DNA from: a virus
Reading direction: 5' to 3' (one strand)
Virus record (IMG/VR): IMGVR_UViG_3300048615_000030
Location: 1-44,828 of that record
DNA length: 44,828 nucleotides
Shown here: positions 399 through 19,249 of the stretch, piece after piece
Numbering within the stretch: position 1 is the first letter of the stretch
Layout of the letters: each line of letters opens with the position of its first letter
The notes under the pieces: generated by a model
What the model was told of the DNA's origin: nothing
Seen by the model: only the letters and a program-made list of their open reading frames with translations
Databases searched by the model: none
Position numbers and translations under genes: made by a program

Positions 399-663
399 GC
401 CCACCCCCCAACAATCCAGCGCTACCACTACCGCAACCAACAGCGCCATCTACATCCCTATATAGGCCCCGGTCGTATTGGGATCGGCCTATTGGCATAC
501 GCTCGTGAGGAGTGTGTGCGTGCATACGCTTTCATTCCTGGCACATTCTGGGATGCGAGGAAACATCAGGTAGTAGTTGACATTTCCTTCACGTGCCTGC
601 GCCCATAACCTATGTTATGTCAGCCTAGACACACCCCGTCCTCCACCATTCAACAGTCAGTTG
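399..663. other. Non-coding region upstream of terminase. Candidate packaging (cos/pac) and/or promoter region.
   Basis: No convincing ORF and visibly less GC-rich. Contains a 10-bp palindrome CCTATATAGG (457..466), a 9-bp direct repeat GCATACGCT (495..503 and 522..530), and an inverted repeat CATAAC-ctat-GTTATG (604..619). Confidence 0.35.
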
Positions 664-9057: not shown

Positions 9058-11813
9058 GCTGCCTCCATTCCCGCGAGCAGATCGTGGATTTCGACGCCGT
9101 CGACAGTGGACTGGACGTCGAGTAGAGCTGCTACCGCTTCGATCTGGTCGACCCGGTCAGACAGGAACAGGTCGGTCTCGTCGTAGAGACGTTGGAGGAG
9201 CCGGTTGACCGCGTCCTTCTGCTCGTCGGGTAGTTGATCGAACGGCAGTTTCGACACGGACAAGTACTCGTCCATCGCGAACCGGGCGACCATCCCAGCG
9301 GCCTGTTCGGTTGCCTTCTCCAAGTCCGACGACGGACCGGTCGACAGGTCCCCTTCGAAGAAGTGCCGTTCGGCCCATACTGAGGCGAGCGCCACTCGGA
9401 TGTCCGCTTCGATCTCAGACCGAGGCCGGGTGTGTCGTTCCTCAATCGGCGCTGACGACACCACACCCAGGTTCCGGTCTCGCATGACAATCGACGCATA
9501 CTGGATTTGGCTGCGCTGCCGGAAATGGTGTGCGACGACAGCATGCGATGCTTCGTGGAGGCAGACCCGACGGTGGTCGTCCTCGACTGTCTGACGGCCC
9601 CGGTCCTCTCCCATCCGCTTCCAAATCAGAGCTTCCCGGATGTCCTTCGCTGTGACTGTCGTTCGCTCTTCCCTGATCGTGGTGAGCAGCGCCTCATTCA
9701 CAATGTCCTTGATGGAGGCGCCGGTCGCTCCAGGGTTCTCCTTCGCCAGGGTTTGAATCTCCTGGTCGGTCACGTTGTGGTCGTCGAGTTTGGCGAGATA
9801 CCCGCGGAGGGTTTCGGCGATCCCGTCAGCGTTAGGCCGACCCACTTTGATATGCCGGTCGTACCGGCCCGGCCGCAACAATGCCGGGTCGAGGTCGTCG
9901 GCCCGGTTCGTCGCTCCCACGTGGAGAATCCGATAGTGGGGCGGAGGGACTGGTTCGAATCCGATCAGGACGCGGATCTTGTTGTACAGGCCGCGGGGTT
10001 TCGCCAGGCCGGACATTTCCGACAAGACCATCTGCAGTGCACCCGACCCGACACCACCGCCGGTTATCACCATCTCGTCTGACAAGCCGACCAACCGGCC
10101 GATAGTCGACAGGACAACCCGTGCGGCCTGTTCGAGAACCCCACCACCACGGGAGCCGAGAGCGTCTATCTCGTCGAAGAAGCAGTTGTGTGTTACGAAG
10201 CCATCGGCTACGAATGTCCTGGTCGACGTTTGGATGGAAACAATCGGGCCGTAGCCGACGGGTTCAATGGCCTCCACCGTCGCCCAAGAGTTGTTGGGCA
10301 GACGAGGTGGGTTGTCACCAGAAAAGACAGCGTGATATTGCTCCAATAGCCGCTGCGGGCGCACCATGCCGAGAAGCCGAAGCGACATCGGTAGGTTCGT
10401 CAGTTCATAGGTGTGTAGGTCACTGGTCGCGAGCCCGTGGGCCCCGGCCTTCCGCAGATACAACGAATATCCGAACCCTCGCCTGTCCAGTTCCTGACCG
10501 ATGCGCTGTTCGACCGGACCAACGTTTTGACTGATGCCGACGTTGAGCCCACGACCAACACCGCGAAAGTCTCGGCCGGTGATGTGCCCCTCGCCGTCGT
10601 ACATGCCAGCAAGCCATGAGTCGCCGTCCTCCGACTCCCAGGGATCGGCAAGCCACTTGATGTGGTCGCCTGGATTGAGCAGTAATGCGGGGCGCCAGAC
10701 GAGGCCGCCGTGGCGCTTTGGCGTTCCCAGCGGGTAGTCCCTTGCGAGAAACGGGTGTTCGCCGTTGACGACGATGCTTCCGCGGTCCGTGACCAGCCGA
10801 TACCGCTGGTCGGTCCGATGCTCTACTGCTTCAACAACCCCGAGCCTGGTCCGCCGCCCTCCGTGTTCGCGTTTCCCCTTCTCGTCAACACCGAAGATGC
10901 CATCCTCCGGCTGCAATGTGTCGGCCCGTACCCAACGAAGGTCATCGGTTAGTACGAGGGTTTCCGGGGCGACACAAACAACCCCGCCATGCTTCACCGA
11001 CAGTTTCCGCAAATGCCGGTAGAGCATTTTCACTTTCATGATCGGAACGCCGACGAACATGTTCGTGAACGATTCCGGCCCGACCGACACGAACGGCTTC
11101 CCGGTCTCCCCGGCCAACGCCTCGGCTAGGAGGCTCTTGCCAGTGCCCGGAGGTCCGACGAGAAGGAGACCGCCAGGCATGTACCCGCCGCGCTTCTCGA
11201 CCACTTCAGGGTTTTCGAGGAGGAACAGGTTCTCCCTCATACGTGCGACGGCCTTGTCCTGGCCGTACACGTCCGAGAACCGAGTGCGGATCGACGCCGG
11301 GTGGATGACCTGGTAGAGGTCCATCCGGGCGAGCACCCACATCATGAGGAACAGTCCTGCGAACCCCATCGCAATGTTGAGTGCCATGAACAGGATGGTC
11401 TGGAAGTTCTGAACGACGAGCGCTGGAATGGCTGTAGCGCATCCGATCGTGCCGGTGCACTTGTCGGTGGCACCGTCGATGAGATAGCCGAGAGCGACCG
11501 TCCAGAAGGCGTAGCGGACTATCCGGCCGATCCGATAACGGGAGTAGTCCGAGAAGCGACCTTTGCGTTTCTCCCACCGGGCTCGAAGGCGGTTGGTGGT
11601 CGCGTAGAAGTGGGTTGACTGTTCTTCTCCGTAACGGACGAACTCTTTCGCCACGTACAAGACGACGAGACCCCAAGTGATCTTCCCGACAGGGGATTGG
11701 AGGAACGGTGATGGCTGGCCGCGTTCGGCGATGAACGTGTAGACGAGCAGATAGGAGATGACACGGATGCGTTCGGTCCAATGGACGGGTGGGCGCAGGC
11801 GAATCTTGCTCAT
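9054..11813 (-). CDS. FtsH-like membrane AAA+ ATPase / M41 zinc metalloprotease, interrupted by an intein.
   Basis: The N-terminus has hydrophobic helices. The Walker A motif is GPPGTGKS. The Walker B motif VV|CFFDEIDALG is split by a 264-aa insert. Further FtsH-like stretches are ATNRADDLDPALLRPGRYDRHI, HEASHAVVAHH (HExxH) and a downstream AERHFF...STGPSSDLEKAT. Confidence 0.8.
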   Translation of the reverse strand: MSKIRLRPPVHWTERIRVISYLLVYTFIAERGQPSPFLQSPVGKITWGLVVLYVAKEFVRYGEEQSTHFYATTNRLRARWEKRKGRFSDYSRYRIGRIVRYAFWTVALGYLIDGATDKCTGTIGCATAIPALVVQNFQTILFMALNIAMGFAGLFLMMWVLARMDLYQVIHPASIRTRFSDVYGQDKAVARMRENLFLLENPEVVEKRGGYMPGGLLLVGPPGTGKSLLAEALAGETGKPFVSVGPESFTNMFVGVPIMKVKMLYRHLRKLSVKHGGVVCVAPETLVLTDDLRWVRADTLQPEDGIFGVDEKGKREHGGRRTRLGVVEAVEHRTDQRYRLVTDRGSIVVNGEHPFLARDYPLGTPKRHGGLVWRPALLLNPGDHIKWLADPWESEDGDSWLAGMYDGEGHITGRDFRGVGRGLNVGISQNVGPVEQRIGQELDRRGFGYSLYLRKAGAHGLATSDLHTYELTNLPMSLRLLGMVRPQRLLEQYHAVFSGDNPPRLPNNSWATVEAIEPVGYGPIVSIQTSTRTFVADGFVTHNCFFDEIDALGSRGGGVLEQAARVVLSTIGRLVGLSDEMVITGGGVGSGALQMVLSEMSGLAKPRGLYNKIRVLIGFEPVPPPHYRILHVGATNRADDLDPALLRPGRYDRHIKVGRPNADGIAETLRGYLAKLDDHNVTDQEIQTLAKENPGATGASIKDIVNEALLTTIREERTTVTAKDIREALIWKRMGEDRGRQTVEDDHRRVCLHEASHAVVAHHFRQRSQIQYASIVMRDRNLGVVSSAPIEERHTRPRSEIEADIRVALASVWAERHFFEGDLSTGPSSDLEKATEQAAGMVARFAMDEYLSVSKLPFDQLPDEQKDAVNRLLQRLYDETDLFLSDRVDQIEAVAALLDVQSTVDGVEIHDLLAGMEAA
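10185..10976 (-). mobile_element. Intein (264 aa) inserted immediately before the Walker B motif of the FtsH-like gene.
   Basis: It begins CVAPETLVLTD (Cys1) and has an internal GEHPF (block B His). WLAGMYDGEGH is LAGLIDADG-like. It ends FVADGFVTHN and is followed by the +1 Cys of CFFDEID. Removing it restores a contiguous AAA+ module. Confidence 0.8.
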
Positions 11814-12043
11814 ACGACGCTGCCCGCTTTCGCCTTCAACGCTGTCGTATCCTCAAGCCAGAGTTGGCCGGCCCACACACCGACAGCAGACCCGCCCCGC
11901 TCCACTTCAACCCGAATCCGGTAGTCCGCGCACTGACGGGTCACGGAACACTCCGAGCAGACAGCGAGTGCTTCGGCCACCGTCGCCTTGTCGTGGAAGA
12001 TGCGAGGGTCCACGTCAAGACAGGCCGCCTGAGCTCGCCACAT
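11810..12043 (-). CDS. whiB: WhiB-family (Wbl) Fe-S transcription factor.
   Basis: Four Cys in the pattern C-x(n)-C-x2-C-x5-C (ACLDVDP...CSECSVTRQC), then GVWAG. Start taken at ATG 12043 (GGAGAG 7 nt upstream; TGATG overlap). The stop overlaps the FtsH-like start by 4 nt. Confidence 0.75.
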   Translation of the reverse strand: MWRAQAACLDVDPRIFHDKATVAEALAVCSECSVTRQCADYRIRVEVERGGSAVGVWAGQLWLEDTTALKAKAGSVV

Positions 12044-16191: not shown

Positions 16192-16490
16192 GCGACCCTC
16201 GCTGCGTCTAAGGCGTCCACCAGGACCGACGGGAAATTCCCCGGCAAGGACGTAGGGAGACCCGCCGGGGAAGAACGGACCAGGGAGACGGGTTCGGCAC
16301 GGTCAGCACCATCCGTCATTTCCAAACGGACCAGCGACGGGTCCTCATCCCACCAATCGAAAAGGAAACGCATCGCCTCACGCTCAGTGGCGAAGACGAG
16401 TTCCATGTAATGGCTGTTCCGGTCGCCTGGCTGCCACGACAATGAGGGAAGCTCAGGCGTCGCACGGATACCCCAAGTACGAGTGGTCAT
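16188..16490 (-). CDS. Hypothetical protein (100 aa).
   Basis: Start at ATG 16490 (MTTRTWGI...), in an ATGA overlap with the stop at 16487. Confidence 0.5.
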   Translation of the reverse strand: MTTRTWGIRATPELPSLSWQPGDRNSHYMELVFATEREAMRFLFDWWDEDPSLVRLEMTDGADRAEPVSLVRSSPAGLPTSLPGNFPSVLVDALDAARVA

Positions 16491-16822
16491 GTCGACTCCG
16501 CCATCCACCTTTGGTGGCGTTCCACCCGACGATGCAACAGCCGATACCAGAACCACCGGCGCAGTCCGAACCATTCGCCGAGCCACCAGCGGAGAATGAA
16601 CCACCACAACTCGCGGGCGCCCTGACGGTTCGTATGCCAATACCACTTGTCCAGAGTGCCGATCCACAACTCGAACCCGTCGTTGCCGATGCGGTAGACC
16701 TGACGAAACCCGTTTGTCTCGGTGTAGTGCTTGACCTCGTTCATCGGTGGGTTCGGATTGCCGCCCCAATCAGTGCCGAGCATCACGTACAGTCGATTCT
16801 CAAGTCGACCGAAAGCATTCAT
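16487..16822 (-). CDS. Hypothetical protein with a Trp/Arg-rich C-terminal segment.
   Basis: 111-aa ORF. ATGA overlap upstream. Confidence 0.5.
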   Translation of the reverse strand: MNAFGRLENRLYVMLGTDWGGNPNPPMNEVKHYTETNGFRQVYRIGNDGFELWIGTLDKWYWHTNRQGARELWWFILRWWLGEWFGLRRWFWYRLLHRRVERHQRWMAEST

Positions 16823-17022: not shown

Positions 17023-17195
17023 GACCGCCTCCACGCCATCCGGCCGAGTCCGCCGTTGATCAGAGACAAGACCAACAGGACCGAACCCATCATCCACCGG
17101 CCGTCGAGGAATTGGTAGGCGCTCGAAGCGAGAGCGCAGCCACTAATCCAGAAGCTGAACGGTGCCGGGTTGGTCCGTTTCGTCCAGGCGATCAC
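17019..17195 (-). CDS. Small two-helix membrane protein (58 aa).
   Basis: GTG 17195 forms a GTGA overlap with the Cro-like stop. Contains hydrophobic stretches. Confidence 0.4.
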   Translation of the reverse strand: MIAWTKRTNPAPFSFWISGCALASSAYQFLDGRWMMGSVLLVLSLINGGLGRMAWRRS

Positions 17196-17395
17196 GACGC
17201 GGCCTCGAGTGAGTCGGCCCACCGGTAGAGAGTGCGCCATGCGATCGGAATGCCAGTCGCCAGATTCAGGTCAGAGGCGATACTTCGGATGGCTTTCCCG
17301 TTGTCCTGTCCTTCGGCGATGAAGTCTGCGAGGGTGGTGCCCTGCGAGGCGAGAGCTTCGTCGACCAGGACGCGGAGGGTGCTGGGATTCCTCAT
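17192..17395 (-). CDS. Cro-like / HTH DNA-binding protein; first gene of the leftward early operon.
   Basis: 67 aa with HTH-like IRSIASDLNLATGIPIAWRTLYRW. Divergent from the repressor. ATG lies 9 nt after a TAATCT -10 hexamer, so the transcript would be near-leaderless. Confidence 0.6.
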   Translation of the reverse strand: MRNPSTLRVLVDEALASQGTTLADFIAEGQDNGKAIRSIASDLNLATGIPIAWRTLYRWADSLEAAS

Positions 17396-17542
17396 CTCAT
17401 GTGGAGATTACACACGCCGTGCCAAATGTCAAGTACCTATCTTGTGGAGATTCCCCACAACCGGTTGACAAGTGGCACAACCGGTGTGTATCTTCCCCAT
17501 ATGGCCGGAAGTTGGGCAACCATTGGGAGAAAGGGCAAGGCT
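17396..17542. promoter_or_regulatory. Genetic-switch region with divergent promoters and operator-like repeats.
   Basis: Rightward promoter candidate: TTGACA (17465..17470), 18 nt, TATCTT (17489..17494). Leftward promoter candidate: TTGACA (complement of 17427..17432), 16 nt, TAATCT (complement of 17405..17410). Repeats: TGTGGAGATT at 17400..17409 and 17443..17452, and CACAACCGGT at 17456..17465 and 17476..17485. The first CACAACCGGT copy contains the palindrome CAACCGGTTG. Confidence 0.6.
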
Positions 17543-17872
17543 ATGACAACGGAATTCGTTGCAACAAGGGCAGAAGTTCAGTCCGTGAGAGTCGGCATGG
17601 CCGCATTGGGGGCAGGACTACGCAACGCGAAGGATCTTCACCGGGCGCTCCAAGCCAACGGAGCCACGATCCACTACGAGACCATTCGACGTCTCTGGTC
17701 TGGCGAGCGGAAAGAAGAACTGCCTTTCACTCTGATCGAACAGATCAGCGAGGCGACCGGGTTCAGCAGCGACTGGCTGGTGGGCAAGCCCGAAGCGGCG
17801 CTCCCTGACAAGGTGAACCGCGCAAAGGGCGTTTCGCGCAGTTCGTTTGCACTAGTCCCCCTCGCCGCCTAG
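17543..17872 (+). CDS. CI-like HTH repressor ending in an ssrA-like ...ALVPLAA.
   Basis: HTH-like LRNAKDLHRALQANGATIHYETIRRLWSGER. The GGGAGA/AAGG SD region lies before ATG 17543. On the plus strand, upstream of int and divergent from the Cro-like gene. Confidence 0.65.
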   Translation: MTTEFVATRAEVQSVRVGMAALGAGLRNAKDLHRALQANGATIHYETIRRLWSGERKEELPFTLIEQISEATGFSSDWLVGKPEAALPDKVNRAKGVSRSSFALVPLAA

Positions 17873-17922
17873 TACCAGCGGCCCATACCCCCCAAAGCAG
17901 GCATGCCCTATGGTCACATGCC

Positions 17923-18738
17923 ATGAGAGAGTCGGAATACGCCGACTATCTCATTGGTGAGAGGCTAGGACCGCGGACCCGGCAACGGTATCTACGGTGG
18001 GTACGGGATGCGGATGAGTGGTTGACACAACAAGAAGCCACCCTCGCCGCCACTACAGCCACCCTAATCGCAGCCTGGGCCGAACAGCGAGTACCCAACT
18101 CCCACGCATGCCGCGGACAAGCCGCCGCCGCACTCAAACACTACTGGCACATGATCGACCATCCCCGACCGCCAGTCCGCGCGATCCCCGTCCCACCCGC
18201 ACCCGAAATGGTCTGCCGTGCCATCACCGACCAACAGATCGACTATGTCATCAAAGTCGCCACAGGATGGTGGCCGAAAGGCACCGTCGTCCTAGTCGGC
18301 ATGACCCTCGCCCTCAGACGTTTCGAAATCGCGAAAATGGAGTGGTCACGGTTCGACCCCGACCTGACCTGGTATCGAGTTACCGGCAAGTATTCGAAGA
18401 CAGCAACACTTCCAGTCCACCGTCATCTCATCACCGAACTCGAGGGGCGTAACATAAATGGTACGCCTTGGGTGTTCCCCGGCAGGGTCGACGGACATAT
18501 CAACCCGGCGACAGTCGGCGCGTGGACAGCCGAAGTCGGACGAGCCGCCGGCGTACCACATCTCCTACCCCACGAGCTCAGACACACGACCCTTGCCGTC
18601 GCGAATGATGAGACCGGCGACCTCCGATCCGTCATGGCATTTGCGCGTCATTCGAAGCCGTCCACGACGGTCGGATATACTCGCACCACCGCGACCAAAC
18701 TGCGGGCCGTATCGGATGCTCTAGGCTATCTCGACTGA
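17923..18738 (+). CDS. int: Tyrosine integrase/recombinase (short, XerC/D-like).
   Basis: Catalytic pattern: ALRRFEI (Arg), HELRHT (H-x-x-R), ARHSK (His), VGYTR (Tyr). Confidence 0.8.
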   Translation: MRESEYADYLIGERLGPRTRQRYLRWVRDADEWLTQQEATLAATTATLIAAWAEQRVPNSHACRGQAAAALKHYWHMIDHPRPPVRAIPVPPAPEMVCRAITDQQIDYVIKVATGWWPKGTVVLVGMTLALRRFEIAKMEWSRFDPDLTWYRVTGKYSKTATLPVHRHLITELEGRNINGTPWVFPGRVDGHINPATVGAWTAEVGRAAGVPHLLPHELRHTTLAVANDETGDLRSVMAFARHSKPSTTVGYTRTTATKLRAVSDALGYLD

Positions 18739-18896
18739 ACCACCAGAAGGAGTCGCTGCGAGAATCCTGAAAGCCGTCGGCGTGTACGTCCTGGCTCTAA
18801 TCCCGTTCGTGTTCTTCGAGTGGGGCCAGTGGGCGTGGATACCTGGACTGGCCGCCCTCGTCGTCGCTGTCGTCTATTACCGGAGGGCCAATAGAT

Positions 18897-18930
18897 GAAC
18901 GCCTCTCCACCGTGAAGCAGAGAGGCGTTC
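18897..18930. terminator. Perfect 11-bp hairpin between the convergent int and holin genes; candidate bidirectional terminator.
   Basis: GAACGCCTCTC (18897..18907), a 12-nt loop, then GAGAGGCGTTC (18920..18930). On the minus strand it is followed by ATCTATT. Confidence 0.45.
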
Positions 18931-19012
18931 AGTAGCTCGACGACAGTGCGCCCTAGGGGCGGTGTCTAACCAAGGCCCACTGTAATCCGCTTGGCTGGCA
19001 TTTGCTAGATCG

Positions 19013-19249
19013 TCACAGGTAGGTCGGAGTGCCCGCCTTGAAGCCCAGCGACAAGACAGGACCCAACCAGGCGAACCGGTCCTGCAGCCTGTTCAAGACG
19101 ATCGTGACAACGCCGACAATCGCCGAAAAGGCGAAAGCCTCCAAAGCGACCCCGTCAATGTCCAAGCCCAGGTTCGCTGTCCAGGCAATGACCGCGCCTA
19201 CTCCGGCTTGGACGGCTGTCCGCACTCCGGCAATGATCGCGTCTCTCAT
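19013..19249 (-). CDS. Holin-like small membrane protein.
   Basis: 78 aa with two hydrophobic helices. The N-terminal IIAGVRTAVQAGVGAVIAW resembles r1t-type holins. It is the last gene of the late/lysis transcript. Confidence 0.5.
   Translation of the reverse strand: MRDAIIAGVRTAVQAGVGAVIAWTANLGLDIDGVALEAFAFSAIVGVVTIVLNRLQDRFAWLGPVLSLGFKAGTPTYL

Follow-up and report, generated by a model that had tools for sequence, protein, structure and literature searches.

The stretch of DNA analysed here, IMG/VR virus record IMGVR_UViG_3300048615_000030 (44,828 bp, hereafter the window), has ~60% G+C and the look of a siphovirus, with tape-measure-sized and other structural open reading frames (ORFs) on the minus strand from ~44.8 kb down to ~20 kb. 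It includes a cassette (Table 1) that consists of a cro-like gene on the minus strand, divergent promoters, a helix-turn-helix (HTH) repressor gene (rep) and, 50 bp further on, a short tyrosine integrase gene (int), the last two adjacent and co-oriented on the plus strand. An initial annotation made from the sequence alone had proposed this layout, together with integration-dependent immunity of the type known from mycobacteriophage BPs, and the coordinates of the layout are confirmed. The core of the phage attachment site (attP) was found inside rep, and the locus is interpreted as an integration-dependent immunity switch, a reading to which we assign a probability of about 0.75.

The core, GGGCGTTT, sits 12 codons before the rep stop codon and opens a longer tRNA-like stretch, GGGCGTTTCGCGCAGTTCG, which is the sole sequence in the 44.8 kb to match positions 1-19 of tRNA-Val with no more than 3 mismatches (0.01 expected). 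The first G of the core (G1) completes the Lys95 codon (AAG), positions 2-7 specify Gly96 and Val97, and positions 8-10 correspond to codon 98. The latter is TCG in the window, as compared with TAG in the tRNA (U8, A9 and G10); hence the rep frame stays open in the phage. The tRNA-like motif is in the same rep frame in all 12 related copies, and in each of them a single substitution would turn the triplet at positions 8-10 into TAG (TCG in five, TAC in three, TAT in two and TGG in two).

Lysogen junctions of relatives were found on two independent Acidimicrobiia contigs, in L004/L007, from the Acidimicrobiia metagenome-assembled genome (MAG) GCA_013812505.1, in which host genes for an aminotransferase, PGI, WhiB and sigma-70 precede an Int homolog, and in L018, a 56-kb Logan contig (SRR23287148_5414, covered here from 5,477 to 26,277) with another host neighbourhood in which WhiB and sigma-70 again stand next to int. 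The host gene order directly upstream of int is whiB(+)/sigma70(-), accompanied by further housekeeping genes, at both junctions, and the integrases are 56% (L004) and 52% (L018) identical to that of the window. The repressor gene is absent from both. What remains beside int is the last 12-13 codons, which lie between host DNA and int and encode GVSRNSILATVAA (...TVAA, then stop) in L004 and GVYLSSDLLPAA (...LPAA, then stop) in L018. The tail is therefore separated from rep in these remnants of the left junction (attL). In L018, int is followed directly by >10 kb of phage genes syntenic with the window.

The corresponding empty site was sought via homologs of the L004 sigma factor by inspection of the contigs that carry close homologs. 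In L031 and L030, with sigma70 respectively 98% and 93% identical to that of L004, a tRNA-Val(tac) gene is divergent from the sigma gene, and in L031 it begins exactly where the phage-like sequence of L004 begins. L031 and L004 are identical through ...ccggtaacctcttcggccgcGGGCGTTT (...cggtaacctcttcggccgcGGGCGTTT) and diverge afterwards; past the breakpoint, L031 continues with AGCTCAGTTGGTAGAGC... (the tRNA) and L004 with CGCGTAACTCG... (the repressor tail, then int). Position +1 of the tRNA, as assigned by ARAGORN, is the first G of GGGCGTTT, and the breakpoint is at the same base (tRNA +1 to +8) in the two different lysogen hosts, those of L004 and L018. The segment common to the bacterial site (attB) and the phage-type copies is GGGCGTTT, to the left of which the phages have AA (from the Lys codon) and the host GC or CC. 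As the phage-type triplet is kept at attL, the exchange takes place within or left of position 8. Judged by these sequence comparisons, attB in the relatives' hosts is the extreme 5' end of tRNA-Val(UAC), positions 1-8.

The initial annotation had placed attP around 17750..17920 rather than in the 274 bp downstream of int, and comparison of attL with attB puts the core in that interval. A core downstream of int beside an intact repressor gene, which it had held to be incompatible with its proposal, is not what the relatives' junctions display. Of the two ends of related actinobacterial prophages that it proposed to map, attL was located (L004 and L018), and no right junction (attR) was recovered.

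Table 1. Features of the immunity cassette and its surroundings in the window.
Feature	Position	Strand	Description
cro-like ORF	17192..17395	-	67 aa; first gene of presumed early lytic operon; label positional
Candidate PR promoter	17405..17432	-	-35 TTGACA 17432..17427, 16-nt spacer, -10 TAATCT 17410..17405; identified by eye
Candidate operator repeats TGTGGAGATTMCMCA	17400, 17443, 17485 (within 17400..17499)	.	spacing 43 and 42 bp; putative
Candidate Prep promoter	17465..17494	+	TTGACA-18-TATCTT, facing rep and int; 10/12 sigma-70 match
rep, viral form	17543..17872	+	109 aa; ATG 17543, TAG 17870-17872
attP common core GGGCGTTT	17827..17834	+	identical to tRNA-Val(UAC) positions 1-8; rep codons 95-98 (aaG GGC GTT Tcg)
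Extended tRNA-like stretch GGGCGTTTCGCGCAGTTCG	17827..17845	+	16/19 matches to tRNA-Val positions 1-19
Codons that integration would cut from rep, SRSSFALVPLAA	17834..17869	+	twelve codons; putative ssrA-like degron
int, armless tyrosine integrase	17923..18738	+	271 aa; ends ...SDALGYLD
Region 3' of int	18739..19012	+	38-aa hydrophobic ORF 18782..18898; perfect 12-bp hairpin 18896..18931

When rep is joined to the tRNA at the core in silico, the resulting attR reads ...AAG GGC GTT TAG and encodes a protein of 97 aa ending ...NRAKGV, with the whole tRNA sequence following. An authentic attR would be expected as an HTH gene ending ...G-V/L-stop and running into tRNA-Val(UAC), in the form GGGCGT(A/T)TAGCTCAGTTGG. 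Scanning of IMG/VR with the pattern GGGCGTNTAGCTCAGTTGGTAGAGC returned 33 loci and scanning of metagenome contigs with AAGGGCGTNTAGCTCAGTTGGTAGAGCAC returned 86, all of them unrelated tRNA genes; the two long open frames among the hits (L041/L061 and L096) were dismissed as tRNA-Lys contexts or antisense artefacts. Truncated repressor forms ending ...KGV were not found in an exhaustive HMMER search and a protein-cluster look-up.

Two other assignments of the attachment site were tried and rejected. A tRNA 3' end or a tmRNA does not account for it, since the T-arm fits neither strand and the 5' acceptor and D-arm fit; nor is attB the 3' end of a host protein gene, since no ORF reads into the L004 junction. 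ARAGORN detected no tRNA at attP or attL in the window and the junction loci, nor a tRNA gene anywhere in the 44,828 bp, and Rfam searches of 17400..19100 and the L004 junction at permissive thresholds gave chance-level matches only.

Further junction-like loci were observed among the relatives. L019 (1..240) and L020 (1..254) lack a repressor gene; GGGCGG is preceded by a TAACCT box at a distance of 11 nt, and a 12-codon remnant ending PVTA and a stop is followed by int. The flanking host gene there differs from the sigma-70 context, and these loci are probably a third attL. In L004, beyond int and an HNH gene, positions 11383..12012 encode a protein that combines two repeats with a linker rich in Thr and Pro and by eye resembles superinfection-exclusion lipoproteins of the Ltp type. 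L003, the closest long relative, carries a tRNA-Asp(gtc) gene at 16442..16516 among its tail genes, unlike the window with no tRNA gene.

The rep gene is preceded by a ribosome-binding site, GGGAGAAAGGG, and its product ends ...KGVSRSSFALVPLAA (SSFALVPLAA), as stated in the initial annotation, which had pointed to the likeness of the -LAA terminus to ssrA tags. The protein has a weak match to PHROG transcriptional repressors (E = 0.006) and no Pfam match, and neither a Pfam search with the repressor family nor a PDB sequence search gave anything significant. An AlphaFold model built from 9 sequences (predicted local distance difference test score, pLDDT, 76.6) has five helices, at residues 9-23, 29-38, 45-53, 62-72 and 76-80. 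The top Foldseek matches of the model in PDB are all Cro/C1-type HTH proteins (434 repressor, TP901-1 CI, ImmR, SinR and lambda cI), with a probability of 0.99 but an E value of about 0.1. The predicted HTH domain spans residues about 9-80, and from residue 94 onwards pLDDT stays under 50, the tail (94-109) being modelled as disordered. Position, weak sequence signals and the modelled fold together suggest that Rep is a Cro/C1-type HTH repressor.

Homologs of the repressor are few (P0002 and P0243-P0251). Against 50,697 GenBank phage records, neither megablast of 17100..19100 nor tblastn of the repressor gave a match, and a repressor search in IMG/VR gave no relative. One of the homologs, P0250 (104 aa), continues for ~40 residues beyond the G-V-Y-L motif (..QGVYLTWECAEDTDCLNY..), as if translating a longer tRNA-like stretch.

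The C-terminal ending was surveyed in the ORF immediately upstream of the Int homolog in 14 phage-type loci. Thirteen of these intact ORFs end in AA (PLAA, PLAA, ALAA, PAAA, SAAA, PAAA, PSAA, SPAA, DLAA, PLAA, SVAA, LVAA and LVAA) and the remaining one in AVAF. The background in the window is 4 AA endings among 431 stop-to-stop ORFs of at least 60 aa, and the -AA tail is thus more than chance. Within the repressor's own family 7 of 9 members end in AA, and so do two of the three attL remnants. The codons for the terminal alanines vary (GCC, GCT and GCG), as do the stop codons (TAG, TAA and TGA). Retention of AA despite this variation indicates a constraint on the protein, not on the DNA.

The N-terminal domains of the -AA-tailed upstream ORFs are often unrelated, and the repressors of the window and L003 are alike mainly in the tail. 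Two pairs of loci, 17543..17872 of the window with L003 8467..8739, and L008 9511..9876 with L011 2389..2679, combine near-identical repressor tails and 79% identical integrases with largely unrelated N-terminal domains, and two such repressor-int modules occur within one MAG. Near-identical tails on unrelated N-terminal domains make the attP core look like a mosaic joint at which immunity specificities are exchanged. The repressor 3' ends of L010 (about 425..514), L026, L027, L028 and L024 are without the 5' motif of tRNA-Val and still end in -AA; these more distant Int relatives probably integrate at different attB sites while following the same kind of switch.

Int matches the Pfam family Phage_integrase (PF00589, E = 1.2e-11) and the PHROG integrase (2e-21). 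Its SAM-like core-binding domain begins at residue 5, which leaves no room for an arm-binding domain; hence the enzyme is armless. The catalytic residues R132, K156, H217, R220, H243 and Y252 are invariant in 23 aligned Int sequences (alignment A3). An -AA C-terminus is present in 2 of 120 Int homologs, most of which end LDYL(D). As judged by tblastn against the 50,697 phage records, the closest catalogued integrases, at ~30% identity, are those of Phrann (Cluster N), the M. abscessus T36 prophages and Gordonia phages; Cluster N and the T36 prophages have been described in the literature as users of integration-dependent immunity. More than 250 relatives of Int were found in metagenomes, and those in genome bins are almost only from Acidimicrobiia or unclassified Actinomycetes. 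No Xis-like protein was revealed by Pfam among 10 neighbouring ORFs, an absence that is weak evidence.

The region 3' of int showed no att-like feature and no tRNA-like or Rfam match. The 38-aa ORF that directly follows int (MYVLALIPFVFFEWGQWAWIPGLAALVVAVVYYRRANR) is strongly hydrophobic and precedes the 12-bp inverted repeat; its product may be a membrane protein expressed by the prophage. A small ORF after int is also present in the relatives L003 (9628..9915) and L006 (5000..5203).

On the other side of rep, the initial annotation was right about the position of the cro-like gene, whereas the label has no support in the protein sequence, which has no Pfam or PHROG match. Positional equivalents of this gene are present in L001, L003, L006, L008 and L011, of which that in L003 matches HTH_23. 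The control region between the cro-like gene and rep is 147 bp long. The candidate Prep was the one site of its type found in the promoter scan (0.5 expected). The candidate PR falls under the threshold of the scan, with its -10 element matching 3 of 6 positions; in a comparison of the window with L001, the PR block is the best conserved intergenic stretch, and a cro mRNA starting from it would be almost leaderless. The putative operators correspond to repeat family D2/D5 and inverted pair I4 of the repeat search. Both divergent promoters have a common 28-nt design (TTGACA..TGGCAC..GTGTGTAWCT) in inverted orientation, with TGTGGAGATT repeats 42-43 bp apart. No terminator was predicted in the gap between rep and int, and the two genes are presumably cotranscribed from Prep.

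The locus would operate as follows. After infection, Prep would transcribe rep and int, giving a 109-aa viral repressor whose flexible -VPLAA tail would direct it to an ssrA-type protease such as ClpXP. While the long repressor is degraded there would be no immunity, and PR would drive cro and the lytic genes. The armless Int would then recombine GGGCGTTT in rep with its perfect counterpart, bases 1-8 of the host gene for tRNA-Val(UAC), divergent from the whiB-sigma70 pair in Acidimicrobiia. At the right junction rep would run into the tRNA, of which U8-A9-G10 would serve as TAG in the rep frame, and the product would be a 97-aa prophage repressor ending ...AKGV. This tail-free form would be stable and would shut off PR. 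Integration would carry int and the last 12 codons of rep to the left junction, where the host tRNA promoter would precede them, and would leave the tRNA sequence complete but downstream of rep. The gene layout, the repressor tail, the core position, the in-frame stop and, in relatives, attB and attL are read from the sequences; that the long form is degraded and the short one active, and what follows for transcription, is what we infer for this switch.

Several points weigh against this interpretation. The attL and attB evidence comes from relatives with integrases 52-56% identical to that of the window; pattern scans and protein-cluster look-ups found no lysogen and no attR of the window phage itself, and the Acidimicrobiia affinity of the integrase family is as far as sequence data would place its host. 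The recognition of -LAA by ClpXP in Acidimicrobiia is putative. A host tRNA promoter that would point into int and the removal of the rep stop codon from the mRNA by RNase P cleavage at tRNA +1 look awkward for a stable lysogen. A few relatives end AVAF, AVAV or AVA instead of AA, and Int is without the C-terminal -AA tag that sets the lysogeny frequency in BPs, so that the full BPs logic is not reproduced. The last two points would also fit a locus in which attP lies in rep and the protein is shortened but the tail is no degron, both forms being equally stable and the -AA ending or the truncation having no regulatory role, or another such as oligomerisation or Prep activation. The degron role is putative, and the tail overlaps DNA to which Int must bind, a place where conservation could be partly at the DNA level. 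Such a locus is nevertheless unlikely, as Ala-Ala is kept while its codons and the stop codon change, which argues for selection on the protein, and is kept across unrelated N-terminal domains. The tail is moreover predicted to be disordered, as expected of a degron, and for BPs this feature has been put to experimental test (PMC4557955).

A conventional switch, in which attP would lie within the 274 bp 3' of int or at some other point, integration would leave rep whole and the tRNA-like sequence in it would be a relic, is compatible with a core of only 8 bp and with the lack of an observed lysogen of the exact window phage. It is hardly credible, given that in the relatives' lysogens the rep tail borders on host DNA upstream of int, with phage genes on the downstream side, that the sole tRNA-Val-like site of the window is inside rep, and that 18739..19012 contains a small ORF and a hairpin instead of a tRNA-like sequence. 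The L004 contig stops 2.2 kb after int and leaves the rest of the prophage unseen, and L004 and L018 could accordingly be taken for decayed prophage remnants in which rep has been deleted, not true attL, and silent on attP. This is very improbable too: the breakpoint is at the same base in two hosts, exactly where an intact tRNA gene begins in the empty site, loss of rep by deletion would not have preserved an unaltered host flank as far as position 8 of the tRNA, and L018 retains its long run of syntenic phage genes. The lysogen junctions, the empty tRNA-Val site and the attR constructed in silico hence support integration-dependent immunity of the BPs type, as initially proposed.

Integration-dependent immunity was reportedly established by Broussard et al. 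in 2013 for BPs, Brujita and Charlie, of Clusters G, I, N and P. In BPs a proteolysis tag on the viral repressor is lost upon integration, and the shortened repressor establishes immunity; Gordonia phages and Bifidobacterium prophages are predicted to have such immunity as well, and according to a review the described systems all use a ~35-bp core containing the 3' end of a tRNA gene (PMC9262239, PMC3694055, PMC4557955, PMC9934374). The window locus resembles these systems in being a ~2-kb three-gene cassette of cro, divergent promoters, and co-oriented rep and int, in having the attP core in the 3' part of rep and an ssrA-like -AA on the viral repressor, and in the supply of a stop codon by bacterial sequence to shorten the prophage repressor, which here is predicted from the in silico attR. 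Likewise, attB overlaps a tRNA gene, the integrase is small and lacks an arm-binding domain, and no Xis was recognised by Pfam among the 10 neighbouring ORFs. It differs in the location of attB, which covers the 5'-terminal 8 bases of the tRNA instead of its 3' end, with no 3' replacement; rep lies upstream of the tRNA in the same orientation and would be terminated by the conserved U8-A9-G10 of the tRNA itself. The perfect cores measure 8 bp here and 35 bp in BPs, the repressor would lose 12 residues here as against 33 in BPs, and Int, unlike that of BPs, has no C-terminal -AA tag. Further differences are that after integration the tRNA promoter would precede int and Prep would precede the tRNA, and that the hosts are uncultured Acidimicrobiia. 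The type of switch is thus known and most of its defining features are present, with the Int tag and the tRNA 3' end absent; the 5'-tRNA geometry is not previously described.

The locus also resembles tRNA-dependent lysogeny as described for Fionnbharth, LeBron and Gaia, which involves a tyrosine integrase and, inside a tRNA gene, a very short core of 8-17 bp (Guerrero-Bustamante and Hatfull 2024, PMC10865867). Cores of this length are too short for ordinary similarity searches. In that type of lysogeny the short core leaves the host tRNA unreconstructed, and a cognate tRNA is encoded by the phage. In the locus studied here, unlike in those phages, the core is at tRNA positions 1-8, the whole tRNA survives at the predicted attR and the phage has no tRNA gene. 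In intP of Myxococcus phage Mx8 and int of Sulfolobus SSV1, attP is likewise inside a gene of the element itself. Integration there rewrites the gene's 3' end or splits the gene, and the proteins of the free and integrated element differ, as predicted for the present case; the affected gene is the integrase, not an immunity repressor, and no degron logic is involved.

A promoter-like sequence, TTGAAT...TAACCT, is conserved upstream of the host tRNA-Val gene, 11 nt before position +1. With the crossover at the tRNA's 5' end, integration would exchange promoters between host and phage genes. A possible but doubtful extension of the model is that in the lysogen the tRNA-Val promoter drives the rep tail and int, the only visible route to tRNA-Val(UAC) is cotranscription with rep from Prep, and a race with RNase P sets the repressor level. 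If so, the excision frequency would be tied to a host tRNA promoter under growth-rate control, which could replace the missing degradation tag of Int, and expression of the host tRNA would depend on the prophage. Cleavage by RNase P at tRNA +1 would sever the rep message 7 nt before the UAG, and the amount of repressor would then reflect a race between translation and tRNA processing, the losers of which would be tmRNA-tagged.

Integration-dependent immunity is the simplest known lysis-lysogeny switch, and nearly all work on it concerns phages that infect Mycobacterium or its close relatives. To our knowledge, attB is at the tRNA 3' end in all such systems studied so far. The locus described here would extend the switch to phages of uncultured Acidimicrobiia and would represent a second way to build it, in which the universally conserved U8-A9-G10 of a tRNA is borrowed as a stop codon and the phage copy is kept one base away from TAG. 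It also provides a rule by which prophage ends may be sought in metagenomes, namely an -AA-tailed HTH gene beside a small integrase gene, with an 8-mer resembling a tRNA 5' end inside it, and raises, as a testable question, whether promoters are swapped between host tRNA genes and prophage genes.

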